Positions 3,237 to 55,720 of a stretch of DNA of 64,000 bases are shown one piece after another (the stretch's first letter is position 1; every line of letters starts with the position of its first letter). The DNA is taken from positions 1 to 64,000 of the forward strand of contig CAVPLU010000006.1 of the NCBI GenBank assembly GCA_963706285.1. Direction: 5' to 3'. Below the pieces are notes generated by a model, which was not told where the DNA came from, did not search any database, and was given only the letters and a program-made list of their open reading frames with translations. Source of the stretch: Candidatus Bathyarchaeota archaeon (GTDB taxonomy: Archaea > Thermoproteota > Bathyarchaeia > 40CM-2-53-6). The translations under genes were made by a program, and so were the position numbers.

Positions 3237-4341
3237 TTGGAGATAGTTACTGTAGTGACACTCCGGATCGATGTCGCGAAAACATGGAAACTTGATGAAC
3301 TCGCACAACAATCACACTATGCCCACAAGGTCGATACGTGGGTATACTATTGCACATTATGCGACGAAGTCCTACTGGTTACACGAAGATTTGTCGGACC
3401 CAAGGGCGTGCAGGCTGCTTTTGATGAAGTTTGCCCAGATTGTGGGTTTGACCTAAAGGACATCATGAGCTGCGAACGCGTGTGGTTATCTCAGTGCCGG
3501 ATCCACCTACGTCAACACAAGTCATCCTAAAGCAGCGCTCCTTCTTGAGGAGCCGCTGCGAACTTTTGAGGGAATCAGGCCAAGAAGCGCTCATCTCCCT
3601 GCGGAGGAGCAGGTACTTACTACAGGAATCGAGAAATTGGACAGACTTGTTCAATTGGCGACGGGGCAGTTCGTCGTTTTTCGAGGTCTCTCTCCTCCAG
3701 CATCTTTGTCTGAGCTTCTCTGTGTCCGGGCTCAGCTTCACCATCCAGTTGGGTTGAATTCAGGCGCAATCTTCATTGACGGTGGAAATCGCTTCGACGT
3801 GTATGCGATATCGCACTACGCCATCAAGTACGGGATTGAACCTAAGTTCGCATTATCTCGTATACATATCAGTCGTGCATTCACGTATTTTCAGCTTGCA
3901 TCCTTGCTGACCGAGAAGTTGCCAAACGCTCTCAAACGTTGCAGCTCCAAATTTGCCGTAGTCTCAGGCATAACTGAGCTATTCCAGGATCCGGAGGTTA
4001 AGGACAAGCAAGAAGCCCATCGCGTCTTCCAACGAATATTGCATTCGTTGTCTGCATTAGTCGAGATCACAGGCTCTCTTGTGATCGCGACAAGTTTCAG
4101 CCAAAACATTAGGTCCTATGACACGGCGCTCATGCAAGCTGCACATGCAACCATTTTCACCGAAGAACATGGCGCATCCACACGATTCGCGATAGTACAC
4201 CACAAATCGCTGCCACCTCGAAAGACCTTGCATCGAGAAGGCCGTGCTGACCAATTCATTGAGGATTATATGGGGGACAAAGAATGGGGAGAACTATTCC
4301 ATCCTGGCGGATCATCATCGATCAAGAGCTTGCGAAACTGA
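3237..4341 (+). CDS. Zn-ribbon + inactivated RecA/RadA-like protein, PolB2-associated; one frameshift near 3490
   Basis: CTLC...CPDC ORF (3237-3530) joins a frame that is open from at least 3481 and reads VLTTGIEKLDRL...IFIDGGNRFDVY...LSRIHISRAFTYFQL; Walker A is degenerate (no GKT). Confidence 0.7.
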
Positions 4342-4537
4342 ACAAGTTCAAACAGGTTCTCAGAGCTGAGGATCAAATAATCTCCGAGGACCTCTTGAAT
4401 CAATGCAAACTCTATACCTCAGCCGCTGGAGCCCTCACTTCCTCGATTAAGTAATTTCCATTACTGGTCACGACACTCTTCATGCATCACAAAAAATCAC
4501 TGCCCATGAAAGACGAATGAAGGAAAAGCTGAAGTGA
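4284..4537 (+). pseudogene. Small helical PolB2 partner protein (arCOG07300-like, MGRTIPSWR...), with an in-frame TAA and a 1-nt deletion
   Basis: ATG 4284 reads MGRTIPSWRIIIDQELAKLNKFKQVLRAEDQIISEDLLNQCKLYTSAAGALTSSIK*FPLLVTTLFMHHKK; adding one A in the A6 run near 4491-4496 gives ITAHERRMKEKLK ending at TGA 4535-4537, which overlaps the polB2 GTG; absent from the ORF track. Confidence 0.75.
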
Positions 4538-6800
4538 AGACAACAGGTTGGCTCTTCGACCTCTACCCAAAACCAGGTCAAATGGTCCTGTGGCTAAAGA
4601 AGCGTGACGGCGAATGCATAAGACTCGTAGACGAATGGACGCCGAGAATTCACATCGCTGGCAAATTCACTGACCTACTTGCCTTAACCACGCGTCCCGA
4701 ATTCCAGGGTCGGTGCAATTTCGTTGAAAGATTCGAGAAGCCAAACGATTCATCACGCTCCAAGGTTCTTGAACTCAAGGCCTTCTCCGACCGCGAAGCT
4801 ACAGCATTGGCGCGAAAGATTCAGCAGCTAGCAGCGTACGGGAGCAAGTACAGGCCATATGATGTTGACATACCGTCTTCGCAGATGTACCTCTATCAGA
4901 AGAATCTCTTCCCGCTAGCTTATGTCGAAGTCGACAATCACGATGGTCACTTGTCCTGGAATCTTCTCGATTCATCAGATTCCGTAGACTATGAAGTTCC
5001 ACAACTTAGAATTGCTAAACTGGCCATCAGCACAAAAACGAATAGACGAATACCCACCATGAGTGACCCCATAGATACTATAACCGTCACTATGGAAGAT
5101 CAGGAGAGACGAATCGCCTCAGGATCGGAAACTGACAAGCTGCTAGCCCTCGTTGAAACGTTCAACGAATTCAACCCAGACATCGTACGCACAGACGACG
5201 GAGACTCCTTCATCTTCCCATATCTAACCCAACACGCCAGCGAGCATAACGCACTCCATAAGCTCGTACTTGGGCGGGATCATGTGCCACTGCAAGTCTT
5301 CGAGACCACAGGTCGAAACTACTTCAGCTACGGCCGAATATACTACCGTAGCACCGCGGCCCGCTTAATGGGTCGACTACACTTGGACAACAGCAATAGC
5401 TTCATCGACACTGACTGTGGCCTTGAAGGTCTCATAGAAATAGCCCGGACATGCATTATTTCGCTCCAACGCGCCTCACGTAGCACGATCGGCACAAGCA
5501 TGTCATCACTTCAGATATACCGCGCTATCAAACGAGAAATACTGATCCCTTGGAGCAAATCTCAACCTGAAGATTTCAAGGACGGAAATAGCCTTCTCCT
5601 AGCCGATCGAGGCGGATTCATCTATGAGCCGAAACTTGGAATCCATGACTGGGTTGGTGAGATTGACTTCTCCTCGCTTTACCCGATGATCATGTTGAAA
5701 AATAACCTGAGCGGCGAGACCGTGAACTGCGAATGCTGCCCCAACTCGCCCAATCGAGTTCCAGAAGTTGGCTTCCACATATGCGAACGTCGTCAGGGGA
5801 TCGTTCCCGCCTCGCTTGAAGTTCTACTCAAAAAACGAGCCGAATACAAGCGATGGAGGAATGAGGCGAACGACCCTCCAACACGAACTCGATACGATCA
5901 ACGCCAAGCTGCGCTCAAATGGATCCTAGTCTGCTCATAGGTGTTTGATGTGTGAATCGAAGCCGGGCATTCGGCTATCTCGGATTCAAGAACGCTCGGT
6001 TCGGCAAGATCGACGCGCATATCGCAACTTGCGCCTATGCACGAGAAGCTATCCAGAGAGCAAGCGCTATTGCTGAATCAAGAGGCTTTCAAGTTATCCA
6101 CGGCATAGTGGACTCGCTCTGGCTCAGAAAAGCCAACTCATCAGACAACGAATACCACGATCTGTGTCGCACAATCGAAACACAACTCGATCTACCAATA
6201 AGTTTCGAAGGAATCTACAAATGGATAGTTTTCCTCAATTCCAGAATCAATCCCTACATGCCTGTCTTGAACAGGTACTATGGCGTCCTCCGAGACGGAA
6301 CGATGAAGGTTCGTGGAATTGACCTTAGGCGACATGACACGGCAGGAATAGTCCGCGACTTCCAGCAAGAGGTTCTAAAGATCCTCTCAAGTGCATCCAA
6401 CTCGATGGAATTCAGCAAACTGATCCCCGTAGCTCTTGAGATAGCAAGAAAGTATGTGCGCTTGATCAGAACAGGTAAAGTCCCTGCGGAAAAGCTTGCA
6501 CTCGAACGGAGATTAAGCAAATCGCCAGAAGAATATACAAGTCTCAGTCATCAAGCAATTGCTGCTCAACAGCTGGGTAGAGAAGGAAGATACATTCACG
6601 CAGGCCAAAACATTCGTTACATAATAACTGGTGAAGCGGCCGCAATCAAAGGTAATCGCGCTGTGCATCGCGAATTGTTCGAGGAAGAAGTCAGTTATGA
6701 TGTAGAAGCATACGTAAAACTCATAATCATGGCATTCGTCAGTCTGTTCCTGCCGCTCGGGTATGATGCATCTAAAGTGAGAGAGATTCTACAAATCTGA
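4534..6800 (+). CDS. polB2: Family B DNA polymerase, PolB2 group; two exons (4534-5938, 5971-6800), 744 aa after splicing
   Basis: Motif A EIDFSSLYP, Cys cluster NCECC...C, motif B KWILVCS/FGYLGFKNARFG split by a 32-nt insert, PolB2-type motif C HGIVDS (first Asp of YGDTDS replaced). Confidence 0.88.
5939..5970 (+). other. Putative 32-nt archaeal bulge-helix-bulge/loop (BHB/BHL) intron in polB2 mRNA
   Basis: 4-bp central helix GCUC(5933-36)/GGGC(5965-68), 3-nt bulges AUA(5937-39) and AUU(5969-71), 9-bp intron stem, exon-exon stem; cutting after the 2nd nt of each bulge gives TGC TCA T|TC GGC TAT = CSFGY in frame. Confidence 0.8.
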
Positions 6801-6885: not shown

Positions 6886-7344
6886 CTATGTGAATCCAAG
6901 TTCTCTCATCTTACTGAGAACGTCAGCAGCATGAGTCCTAGTGTTCACATGAGAGAAAACATGCCTCACGATTCCGTCAGGGCCTATGATGTAAGTCACC
7001 CTTCTTGCCATCCCAAAAGGGCCCAGAACTCCGTACGCCCGCACGATATTCTTCTTCACATCTGATACGAGAGTGAAATTGAGCTTGTATCTCGATGCGA
7101 ATCCTGCATGCGATTCTTCCGAATCCACACTGACTCCAAGTACCGTGATTCCCCGATCTCGCAGTGGGCTCATAGAATCCCTGAACGAACATGCTTCTGC
7201 AGTACATCCTGGCGTATTGTCTTTTGGATAAAAGTACAGGACGACGGGGCGTCCGCGGAATGAGGTTAACGTTACAATATTCCCACCCTGATCCTTAGCT
7301 TCAAAGTCAGGCGCAATTTCGCCCAATTTTGGACCATTCGTCAT
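6886..7344 (-). CDS. bcp: Peroxiredoxin, BCP/PrxQ family
   Basis: VLYFYPKDNTPGCTAEAC motif. Confidence 0.92.
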   Translation of the reverse strand: MTNGPKLGEIAPDFEAKDQGGNIVTLTSFRGRPVVLYFYPKDNTPGCTAEACSFRDSMSPLRDRGITVLGVSVDSEESHAGFASRYKLNFTLVSDVKKNIVRAYGVLGPFGMARRVTYIIGPDGIVRHVFSHVNTRTHAADVLSKMRELGFT

Positions 7345-53383: not shown

Positions 53384-55720
53384 TGCGTTTGCAAGAGTTT
53401 TGGTTTCAAGAGGTGGCTTACAACAACCAATCACAAAGACATTGGAATACTCTACATAGTCACGTCTTTGTGTTTCCTAGTCTTGACAGGAACAATAGGG
53501 ATGCTCCTGAGGTCTCAGATGACCTTCATGGACGAAACCTTTCTCACGTCCAGCAAGTTACGAACAGGGTGTCACATTGCTTGGTTTGCTTGGAATCTTA
53601 TGGTTCGGCTCACCTATGGGTATTGGACTTGCCAATTACATTGTGCCGCTACAGATAGGCGCCAGAGACTTGGCATTTCCCCGCCTTAACGCATTGAGTT
53701 ACTGGCTATACCTTCTCAGCGGTTTGACACTCACGAGCAGTATCTTTCTACCGGGAGGAGCTCCGATTACGGGATGGACGATCTATGCACCGCTCAGCAC
53801 ACTTGAAGTACAATCCGCAACTCGGCATGACATTGGGCGCGTTGGCCGTGGCTATGCTGACAGCTTCTATCGTTCTTGTCGTCCGTCAATTTCATGACGA
53901 CCATACTGATGATGCGAAAAACCGGAATGACTTGGTCAAAGAGTCCCTATCTTCACGTGGAGCATTCTCTTCACTATCGCTATGATGTTGTTCGCATTTC
54001 CATCTTTTGCAGTAGGCTTGCTTCTGCTTGCTTCTGATAGGATACTGGGCACTGTGTACCTCGTGTCCAACGAAGGCGGCGCGATTCTGTGGGATCAACT
54101 CTTCTGGTTCTTCGGTCATCCGGAAGTTTACATCGTTGCCTTTCCCGCGCTCGGAGTTTTGGGAGAAGTGATCAGCGCGTTCTCAAGAAGACCGCTATTC
54201 GGAACGAAGGAGATCGTTGCCGCCTTAGGAGTGGTTTCGGTCATGAGCATGCTGGTTTGGGTTCATCACATGTTCACCACAGGTGTAAGCCTCGAAATTA
54301 GAATAGTGTTCTCTCTGACGACGCAGGCTATCTCTCTCCCCACCGAGATGGTGATTATTGGTCTGATACTCACTCTGCGTAAGGGATCAATACGATTGCA
54401 GACGCCCATGATTTTTGCGTTAGGCGCCATCTTTGTCTTTATTGTTGGCGGGATAACTGGTGTTTTCCAATCCTCGATACCTCTCGATTATGCTCTGAGG
54501 GGAACCTATTTCATCGTAGCTCATTTTCACTACGTCATGGTTGGTCTGCTTGTTTTCGGGTTATCTGCCGGCCTCCTCTACTGGTTCCCCAAGATTACAG
54601 GTAGAATGTACTATGAGAGACTTGGCAAGGTAAGCTTCTGGTTTTCTTTCTTCGGTTTCAATCTTCTCTACTTTCCCATGTTCTTCCTTCTGGACATGCC
54701 AAGAAGATCCTCGATGTTCTCTGAACCCACTTGGTGGCCATACAACTTTGCATCAACAATCGGGGCTTGGATATTCGGGCCATCTTTGCTCCTGTTGCTC
54801 GCAAATCTTGCAGTCAGCATGAAGAAAGGAGAATTTGTTTCGAGCAACCCATGGAAATCTCCGCAGCCTGAATGGCAAGAGAACGCCCAAAGATCCGAAG
54901 ATCTCTCCCAAATCTCCCGACGATGCCGTGCGACCCGCCTCAGAACGAACAAAGAAAGCCACTCCGACACGGACGATCGTGGCTTCACAATCGATCCCTT
55001 TGATTCTTTCAGTTGGCGTGGCGGTATTTCTGTTCGCACTGGCTTCATATCCCACCGTTCATGTTGCTGGGAATTGCCATAGTTGCGGTAGGCCTTGCTG
55101 TGTGGTTCTGGGATCACACGTACGATAGGTATGCTTCTCGTGAAGAAGTTGGTCTGGAAAAGTGGCCGCTCGTTTCTCTTTCCAAAGAAAAGGTCGGTGT
55201 ATGGGTGTTTCTGGCATCAGAAGCGGTCATCTTCGGGTCAATAATTGCTGCTTACCTGTACGTTAGGGCAGGAAGCGCATCTTGGCCCATCTCATACGAG
55301 ATTCATGGTGTTCCAATTGGTGCATTGAACACGATTATACTATTGACGAGCAGCTTTGCCATTATCATGGCTCGCGACTCAATCAAGATGAACAATCTCC
55401 GAGGACTGAAGATTTGGCTCTTCTGCACTTTCGGTTTGGGTTTCGTTTTTCTGCTGATAAAGGGATTTGAATGGCTGCAATTGATGGCCAAAGGTTTCAT
55501 CATATCGAGCGGACTGCCCGCTTCTACGTACTATGTCACAACCGGGGCCCACGCAATACATGTTGGCGTTGGGCTGGTCGCCGTTCTCTACCTGATGATT
55601 AAGGCTCAGAAGGGAAGATTTAGTGCACAACAACACGCGGCGGTTGAGAACATAGGTCTCTACTGGCACTTTGTCGACATAGTCTGGATGTTCCTCTTCC
55701 CGCTCTTCTACCTGATATAG
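53383..55720 (+). CDS. coxA: Heme-copper oxidase subunit I (A1 type) followed by, probably fused to, subunit III; several frameshifts
   Basis: [43 protein letters not shown] (subunit I); [22 protein letters not shown] (subunit III). Confidence 0.83.

Follow-up and report, generated by a model that had tools for sequence, protein, structure and literature searches.

The window analysed here, a stretch of 64,000 nucleotides (nt) from Candidatus Bathyarchaeota archaeon (assembly GCA_963706285.1, contig CAVPLU010000006.1, positions 1 to 64,000 of the forward strand), carries at 4534-6800 a gene of a family-B DNA polymerase, polB2, whose reading frame is broken inside the conserved motif B, one base into a codon. 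The first open reading frame (ORF; 4534..5940) has a GTG start, comprises 468 amino acids (aa) and ends with ...KWILVCS followed by TAG at 5938-5940; the second one (5952..6800, 282 aa) lies in a different frame, reads MNRSRAFGYLGFKNARFG and continues the protein with ...AFGYLGFKNARFG. Relative to the uninterrupted orthologs, which read ALKWILVCSFGYLGFKNARFG, polB2 of the window contains exactly 32 extra nt at 5939-5970, and these very probably represent an archaeal endonuclease-type intron of the relaxed bulge-helix-bulge (BHB) or bulge-helix-loop (BHL) kind in the polB2 pre-mRNA. The features of the gene and of the putative intron are the following.

4534-6800, plus strand: polB2, the whole interrupted gene, as covered by the two ORFs.
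4534..5938, plus strand: exon 1 of polB2, encoding the N-terminal domain, a degenerate exonuclease domain and motif A; it breaks off halfway through motif B, after KWILVCS and the initial base of a Phe codon (Pfam PF00136 and PF03104; NCBIfam NF004418).
5921..5931, plus strand: 5' exon strand of the predicted exon-exon helices, GGAUCC and UAGUC (minimum free energy (MFE) fold).
5933..5936, plus strand: 5' strand of the central helix, GCUC, pairing with 5965-5968 (paired at all four positions in 23 of 23 orthologs).
5937..5939, plus strand: 5' bulge of 3 nt, AUA, with the cut predicted after U5938 (AUA in 23 of 23 orthologs).
5938..5940, plus strand: in-frame TAG across the predicted 5' splice site, stopping translation of unspliced RNA after 468 aa (sequence and ORFs).
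5939..5970, plus strand: predicted intron of 32 nt, relaxed BHB/BHL type (extra relative to uninterrupted orthologs).
5940..5964, plus strand: intron hairpin standing on the central helix, GGU/GCC, bulged G5943, UUUGAU/AUCGAA and the loop GUGUGA (MFE fold and ortholog pairing).
5965..5968, plus strand: 3' strand of the central helix, GGGC (MFE fold and ortholog pairing).
5969..5971, plus strand: 3' bulge A-N-U, AUU in the window, with the cut predicted after U5970; the U5932/C5972 mismatch that comes next puts this site in a loop, not in a closed bulge (A-N-U in 23 of 23 orthologs).
5971..6800, plus strand: exon 2 of polB2, with the last two bases of the Phe codon, the remaining motif B (FGYLGFKNARFG), motif C (HGIVDS), the thumb and the stop codon (Pfam PF00136, profile positions 207-450 of 453; NF004418).
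5973..5987, plus strand: 3' exon strand of the predicted exon-exon helices, GGCUA and GGAUUC (MFE fold).

The two pieces of polB2 match consecutive parts of the Pfam DNA_pol_B profile. In the NF004418 profile (717 positions) exon 1 occupies positions 10-435 and exon 2 positions 436-704; the matches abut, and thus no sequence is missing or duplicated at the break. NF004418 and NF004416 are the best NCBIfam models for the gene, both below their cut-offs. In the ORF translations motif A reads IDFSSLYP, motif B KWILVCS/FGY (the slash marking the break), motif C HGIVDS and the ExoI position LAIST. The usual motif C of such polymerases being Y-G-D-T-D-S, its Tyr and first Asp are substituted here, motif A is intact and the exonuclease motif is degenerate. 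PolB2 is described in passages of PMC8764526 by the same features, i.e., motifs A and B kept, motif C substituted at Y and D, and a diverged exonuclease domain. Judged by its sequence, the gene is a PolB2-like (Dpo2-like, damage-tolerance) family-B DNA polymerase, in line with the name polB2 given to it in the preliminary description of this DNA.

The insert is real DNA and no assembly error. Contigs of two other public runs, belonging to different studies, span 5939-5970 and show 0 gaps there (X1 record 5, 5810-6086; X14 record 10, 5827-6007) and so confirm it in independent DNA; no joined, insert-free form of the window polB2 was found in the contigs of these two runs, and the contig cover of a further run, X3, at the insert site comprises 5911-5940 only. 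In X14, contigs from other organisms agree with the window from 5970 onward, after an uninterrupted coding sequence ...KWMLVTC, and by this start mark the same intron boundary. When metagenome contigs were scanned for the 18 nt of the exon-exon junction, nine loci came up, none of them a spliced copy of this gene: three are intron-less homologs of ~64% identity, and six show no match to the gene. The genome holds no second copy of the 32 nt beyond chance matches of 12-13 nt, and Rfam gives no family match for the insert at E up to 1. The exact junction in the window can slide over a CAT repeat (5936-38 / 5968-70) with the product unchanged: the joined frame comprises 468 + 1 (Phe) + 275 = 744 aa. 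The ORFs and the ortholog comparison thus bear out what the preliminary description had stated on the architecture of the gene, namely a frame break after KWILVCS with exactly 32 extra nt at 5939-5970, a joined frame of 744 aa, and an unspliced product that ends at the TAG as a 468-aa protein lacking motif C.

Both the upstream and the downstream halves of the gene are open in all 23 loci that carry an insert at this site. Within the window's genus, dN/dS amounts to 0.08-0.23 downstream of the break and to 0.10-0.27 upstream of it, at dS from 0.11 to >1, i.e., the half behind the stop codon is under the same purifying selection as the half in front of it. An accidental, unrescued insertion in a dead or dying gene, or an artefact of assembly, is therefore hardly credible as an explanation of the break. 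The assembly does contain 1-nt frameshift errors, as the preliminary description had remarked and as is exemplified by simple 1-nt frameshifts in rtcB and in a DNA-ligase gene (see below), but two other studies recovered the insert in their DNA contigs, 23 species-level genomes carry an insert here, and a dead gene would keep neither both halves open nor purifying selection at dS >1. Read-through of the TAG, a related idea for inserts that keep the frame, is to be judged likewise: a tRNA with the anticodon CTA, proposed by ARAGORN in an unreliable prediction, would speak in its favour, but 16 of the 23 insert lengths are not multiples of three, and in the window a TGA follows five codons on (5953-5955). 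Since these 16 inserts shift the frame and all inserts begin with an in-frame TAG or TAA, read-through provides no rescue.

The comparison with related genomes covered 70 orthologous loci, collected from 61 relatives at first, with the search later extended to all 59 genomes of the family and all 105 of the order. The junction was readable in 68 loci, L026 (contig end) and L056 being left out. In 38 of them motif B is uninterrupted (...VC[SA]FGYLG...), 23 carry an insert at exactly the codon interrupted in the window, four an intein one codon upstream, and three a single extra base. The inserts are 32 nt (nine loci), 31 nt (one), 26 nt (one), 24 nt (six), 23 nt (one), 21 nt (one) or 20 nt (four) long and fall into three mutually unalignable sequence classes: GGY...RCC in the window's genus, GCCGY...RCGGC in two other genera of its family, and AUGYYC...GRRCAU in a second family. 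The flanks, GC[UG]C-AUA on the 5' side and G[GAC]G[CU]-A-N-U on the 3' side, are kept in 23 of 23 loci, and the stop codon at the start of the insert is TAG in 20 and TAA in three of them.

The MFE fold of 5915-5995 (-23.3 kcal/mol) contains the helices GGAUCC/GGAUUC and UAGUC/GGCUA between the exons, the central helix GCUC/GGGC, and the intron stem GGU/GCC plus UUUGAU/AUCGAA with the loop GUGUGA. Pairing in the orthologs was scored at coordinates anchored at the homology-defined excision. Each of the four central pairs is formed in 23/23 loci, the third one as U-G (11), U-A (9) or G-C (3), and so is each of the first three pairs of the intron stem, with 2-4 pair types per pair, despite the mutually unalignable insert classes. 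The 5' bulge, AUA throughout, is closed directly by this covarying stem. In a MAFFT alignment (A1), 91.8% of the cells are paired, vs. 21.8-43.6% when the 3' partners are slid by 1-3 columns, and the cells changed on both sides number 33, vs. 9.6 +/- 2.7 in shuffles, none of 500 of which reached 33. Such double-sided changes affect five of the five intron-stem pairs and one of the four central pairs. As to the preliminary description, which had pointed to same-codon inserts with compensatory changes in the helices as a check of its proposal, the inserts are found in 23 orthologs and the changes in the intron stem and in the third central pair, but not in the exon-exon helices; similarly, all helices that it had listed appear in the MFE fold, whereas its 3' bulge AUU does not (see below).

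Each bulge is cut by the splicing endonuclease EndA between its second and third nucleotide. When both cuts were slid together from -6 to +6, the expected geometry (four central and three stem pairs) was found in 23/23 loci at shift 0 and in 0/23 at each of the 12 other shifts. Shuffling of the window intron leaves 4/4 central pairs together with stem pairs one to three, at the cuts that restore the frame, in only 635 of 200,000 sequences, and the shuffled introns of four representatives pass in 27-635 cases per 200,000. The codon predicted to arise by splicing at these cuts is Phe in 23/23 insert loci, and the corresponding codon is Phe in each of the 33 uninterrupted orthologs scored by the script. 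The cut sites proposed earlier as restoring the CSFGY frame are hence the only ones among 13 shifts that satisfy the geometry.

These results bear directly on translational bypassing of the type known from phage T4 gene 60 and the yeast-mitochondrial byp elements, whereby the ribosome would take off at UCA, skip the hairpin and land near the 3' end of the insert, the RNA staying uncut. A stop codon stands directly after the last sense codon in 23/23 loci and is followed by a hairpin, and GCA precedes the resume point in 21/23, resembling a take-off UCA or GCA, as bypassing might have it. However, the take-off and landing codons are identical in one locus of 23 only, and the residue after landing would be Ile in 16 loci, Val in four and Phe in three, whereas the uninterrupted orthologs have Phe in 33/33 and splicing yields Phe in 23/23. 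Nor does bypassing account for a conserved pairing of 4 bp between exon and intron, flanked by 3-nt bulges at exact spacing, in the register seen in this genome's tRNA-Pro intron. We know of no archaeal case of such bypassing and regard it as very improbable here.

Some methanogens have split family-B polymerases, and the halves of polB2 could in principle be translated separately into a two-subunit enzyme, with the insert as an intergenic spacer. Translation of the second ORF could begin at a GTG (5952) in the window, and a potential start codon (ATG, GTG or TTG) precedes exon 2 in its frame in 10 of the 23 loci. In the 13 others no such codon occurs between the last stop in that frame and exon 2, and a separately initiated subunit is for this reason no general explanation. 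Besides, the break lies inside motif B and within a codon, spacers of 20-32 nt are too short for a ribosome-binding site plus a start codon, a spacer needs neither a conserved helix with the upstream coding sequence nor compensatory changes, and the halves are seamlessly fused in sister lineages. A split gene is accordingly, in our estimation, slightly less probable even than bypassing.

One of the orthologs with a 20-nt intron, L045 (G080), has a second frameshift ~23 codons upstream, which makes a single open frame of 772 aa out of exon 1, the intron and exon 2, with motif B and the intron read in the wrong frame. This upstream frameshift is probably an assembly indel, which would mislead gene callers to a full-length protein with a scrambled motif B.

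The enzymes that splicing would require are encoded in the same genome. It contains two genes of the EndA family (PF01974), situated near 149 kb of contig 12 and near 75.2 kb of contig 6. Paralog 1 has kept the Tyr/His/Lys region and matches 2cv8_A, 3p1z_B and 3ajv_B, labelled in PDB as tRNA-splicing endonuclease and taken by us to be crenarchaeal catalytic EndA subunits, at E from 4e-40 to 4e-36. Paralog 2, when aligned to paralog 1 by BLASTP, has His in place of the Tyr, and by reading of its printed sequence lacks the catalytic His, the position of which lies beyond the BLASTP alignment. The pair thus bears the sequence signature of a heteromeric EndA made of a crenarchaeal-type alpha subunit and a non-catalytic-looking paralog. 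According to passages of PMC12397907, PMC4033280 and PMC2738675, heteromeric EndA is the type that cuts relaxed motifs, including cbf5 pre-mRNA. The RNA ligase RtcB (PF01139) is encoded as well.

Introns of this machinery's usual substrates served as internal controls. The cut geometry is matched exactly by the 16-nt intron of tRNA-Pro(CGG), located at 37/38, with a 4-bp helix, 3-nt bulges and the cut after the second bulge base; among the four tRNA introns re-examined, the BHB geometry is exact in Pro, occurs at shifted positions in Ser and Phe, and does not fit in Val. The intron mode of ARAGORN (26 predictions in the genome) forces introns into the anticodon loop, and its positions are unreliable. 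In this mode nearly every predicted tRNA gene appears intron-bearing, several at apparently non-canonical positions, the placements being subject to the same unreliability; the tRNA proposed with the anticodon CTA lies on contig C4 at 369,685-369,814.

The cbf5 gene of this genome contains a 20-nt insert between GGTL and DPIVTG (G000 contig C13, ~129,520-129,545; L085/L086), with the junction ambiguous over four positions, which is compatible with the classical crenarchaeal cbf5 intron site inside the catalytic Asp codon. Inserts of 17-23 nt with varying hairpins occupy the same site in 29 of 30 cbf5 loci of relatives in the order (L087-L115). The central helix of the cbf5 insert looks to be 3 bp long (CCC/GGG), with 4-nt bulges. 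Since cbf5 is interrupted at the classical site, the lineage apparently already relies on mRNA splicing for an essential gene. A genome-wide scan for loose BHB motifs combined with ORF fusion yielded 498 hits, most of them neighbouring genes; strict filtering retained five unconvincing hits and lost the polB2 intron itself, which has only three consecutive stem pairs. The scan also missed cbf5 (short upstream ORF, 3-bp central helix) and is consequently no evidence against further introns. An additional hit with AUA/A.. bulges was rejected: it is a 1-nt frameshift in a G run of the gene for an ATP-dependent DNA ligase (contig C8, ~54,800-54,830; ...GRRKERF / FGAMILGLYDGG), a probable assembly indel.

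The mechanism which we propose proceeds as follows. Exon bases 5933-5936 would pair with intron bases 5965-5968 to form the 4-bp central helix, flanked on the 5' side by the 3-nt AUA bulge, closed by the intron hairpin, and on the 3' side by A-U-U within a small internal loop beside a weak exon-exon helix. The heteromeric EndA (alpha plus the non-catalytic paralog) would cut after U5938 and U5970, and RtcB would join the exons into UCA-UUC-GGC (Ser-Phe-Gly), giving the 744-aa frame with an intact motif B. RNA left unspliced would be translated up to the TAG into the 468-aa fragment, devoid of the remaining motif B and of motif C. Splicing is taken as constitutive by default, like that of cbf5. 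The core of the preliminary description, a BHB/BHL intron removed by EndA and RtcB, is supported by every comparative test made, namely by the same-site inserts, the covariation, the Phe register, the selection on both halves, the frequent lack of a start codon in the downstream half, the presence of the enzymes and the cbf5 insert; cleavage and ligation in vivo we infer from this comparison of DNA.

Several points weigh against this interpretation. The energy of the fold is unremarkable (z -1.40), 15 of 200 shuffles folding as well or better; thermodynamics alone is weak here, and the structural signal lies in geometry and comparison. The MFE fold adds a fifth central pair, U5932-A5969, which turns the 3' bulge into UUC (5970-72) instead of AUU. 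A strict hBHBh' motif would have a closed 3' bulge, and in the orthologs no pair closes it at 5932/5972 (0/23), the position next to this one being paired in 16/23; as the closing position is unpaired in all of them, the motif is a relaxed bulge-helix-loop and not a strict hBHBh'. The exon-exon helices show no compensatory change in any ortholog, and their pairing is about equally frequent in the intron-less genes, for which reasons they appear to be mainly a by-product of coding; at free third-codon positions pairing is found in 17/23 intron-bearing vs. 15/33 intron-less genes and in 20/23 vs. 25/33, a slight excess from which nothing was drawn. The rule for the cut positions was checked within this analysis against the tRNA introns of this genome only. 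The alpha-beta assignment of EndA comes from sequence alone, and the substrate range of the Bathyarchaeial enzyme is a predicted one. The rtcB gene is frameshifted in the assembly (G000 contig C4, ~106,300-106,330; L073/L074), its two frames, ...PAMAC and ...AACNFAWVNRQ, overlapping by ~23 nt, most likely owing to a 1-nt assembly error. Finally, among the 24 public runs listed, none of those that hold the locus is an RNA run, and the RNA run X23 covers the locus with 0 records.

The intron is not the only device found at this site. Four loci (L019, L021, L028 and L042, from G034, G010, G052 and G061) have a LAGLIDADG intein at KWILVC/C..., one codon upstream of the intron site, recognised by the Pfam families Intein_splicing and LAGLIDADG_3 (L021:1-1500, minus strand). 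Three others, L015, L016 and L039 (G017, G024 and G063, three species), have no intron and one extra base at the intron site, UCC-UUU-C-GGC vs. UCA-UUC-GGC, so that the halves lie in different frames. Both halves are open and under purifying selection in these loci as well, with dN/dS of 0.06-0.15 at dS 0.23-0.55 (three genomes and two uninterrupted sisters). The extra base looks less like an error than like a maintained +1 frameshift site, where tRNA-Phe, before CGG, would slip from UUU to UUC. In sister lineages motif B of PolB2 is thus interrupted at three levels, by an EndA-type intron at the level of RNA (23 loci), by an intein at that of protein (four) and, at that of translation, by a conserved extra base that would call for +1 ribosomal frameshifting (three species). 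Beyond a mere hotspot for homing, one might imagine that the cell purposely controls expression of a mutagenic polymerase by removing the intron in a regulated manner in response to damage, with the unspliced 468-aa fragment still able to bind partners such as iRadA; we consider this unlikely. The on/off switch for polB2 modelled on HAC1/XBP1 is a speculation by analogy.

A maximum-likelihood tree of the exon-1 proteins (65 rows, quick search, SH-aLRT support, unrooted) was used to follow the distribution of the insert, L045 being left out since its upstream frameshift shortens the exon-1 frame. The intron is present in all seven tree rows of the window's genus, in three clades of its family, two of them with intron-less lineages nested or adjoining, and in one clade of the second family, which requires at least five changes of state on this tree. 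As the tree has no root, gains and losses are indistinguishable on it; we propose that the intron is old in the family, for all seven genomes of the genus with a readable junction carry it and its classes have diverged, and that it may have been lost precisely several times. Outside the window's order no interrupted ortholog was found in a sample of the class (401 genomes, 150 orthologs) or of the phylum (401 genomes, 52 orthologs), in which some shorter open frames (e.g., G361, G249, G189, G619) were left uninspected. Among the 120 best database relatives of exon 1, 90 are filed as proteins of 447-497 aa, wherefore many of them are probably truncated gene calls.

The polB2 operon includes two upstream features on the same strand.

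3637..4341, plus strand: Rad51/RadA-like gene, likely the inactive iRadA partner of PolB2 (Pfam PF08423 Rad51, E 3.1e-7).
4284..4454, plus strand: ORF of 56 aa between the iRadA-like gene and polB2, possibly a PPB2-like small helical protein (ORF list).

According to the abstract of PMC11791011, PolB2 works together with iRadA and the small protein PPB2, and the order Rad51-family gene, 56-aa ORF, polB2 fits the context given there. The Rad51-family gene is, by this context, likely iRadA. The 56-aa ORF has no Pfam match, and its tentative designation as a PPB2-like protein is suggested by gene order, its sole basis. Directly downstream, an ordinary peroxiredoxin gene (AhpC/TSA, E 5e-41; 6886-7344, minus strand) converges on polB2.

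Passages of two papers (PMC2738675, 2009; PMC7714728, 2020) present cbf5 as the sole case of mRNA splicing in archaea, the former adding that such an intron had been confirmed in no other gene. Our literature search, outside of which lay subscription journals and supplementary tables (e.g., those of the PolB2 papers), turned up no report of an archaeal DNA polymerase gene with an intron and agrees in this with the preliminary description, which held a polymerase mRNA intron to be undescribed. After cbf5, polB2 appears to be the second archaeal family of protein genes that needs RNA splicing. If so, splicing of mRNA by the tRNA machinery is no one-off, a conserved and covarying intron being present in a different archaeal class. 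The inserts would moreover offer a natural series of 20-32-nt substrates for what an EndA of relaxed specificity needs outside a tRNA body, and the junctions a dated set of precise intron losses. In a passage on its data, an in-silico study of PolB2 reports that 'truncated' sequences were thrown out; since truncated gene calls are probably common in this clade, surveys of PolB2 may be blind to it. Were the splicing regulated, it would be a prokaryotic analogue of HAC1/XBP1 governing a mutagenic polymerase.

Among the known systems, the introns of archaeal tRNA and rRNA genes, cut by EndA and ligated by RtcB, resemble the polB2 insert in size, which is in the range of tRNA introns, and in cut geometry, which is identical to that of the genome's own tRNA-Pro(CGG) intron. 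They differ in that the polB2 substrate is an mRNA without a tRNA body and has a loop, not a closed bulge, at the 3' site; because of this loop the motif would need a broad-specificity EndA of the (alpha-beta)2 or epsilon2 type, in keeping with passages of PMC12397907 and PMC4033280. In Haloferax volcanii, the HVO_1309 mRNA is likewise cut by the splicing endonuclease at a BHB motif, although the passages of PMC7714728 describe no frame-restoring ligation of exons. Polymerase inteins share with the polB2 insert the position of an intervening element in the most conserved polymerase motifs and its removal after transcription; an intein, however, has ~500 aa, is spliced out of the protein and codes for a homing endonuclease, whereas the insert has 20-32 nt, is non-coding and holds a stop codon.

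The endonuclease IRE1 is unrelated to EndA and recognises twin stem-loops, and the unconventional cytoplasmic HAC1/XBP1 splicing that depends on it is a regulated stress switch. As in the case proposed here, a short intron leaves an mRNA without a spliceosome by the action of an endonuclease on a structured motif and of a tRNA-type ligase or RtcB, and the frame and the protein are altered (cf. a passage of PMC13149111). A regulated switch based on IRE1 and an EndA-type motif in polB2 are nevertheless different things, comparable by analogy only.

The closest counterpart is the cbf5 intron, for which splicing has been confirmed experimentally and which has a relaxed BHB motif in hosts with a hetero-oligomeric splicing endonuclease (Yokobori 2009, PMC2738675, in the passages concerned). 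Cbf5 is an essential pseudouridine synthase of crenarchaeal hosts, whereas PolB2 is a non-essential damage-tolerance polymerase of a Bathyarchaeia host, its intron is known here from DNA alone, and the site lies in motif B. In both genes the intron interrupts the codon for a residue critical to function, within a conserved catalytic motif, is patchily distributed with gains and precise losses, and has lengths of which some keep the frame and others shift it, as passages of PMC2738675 indicate for cbf5.

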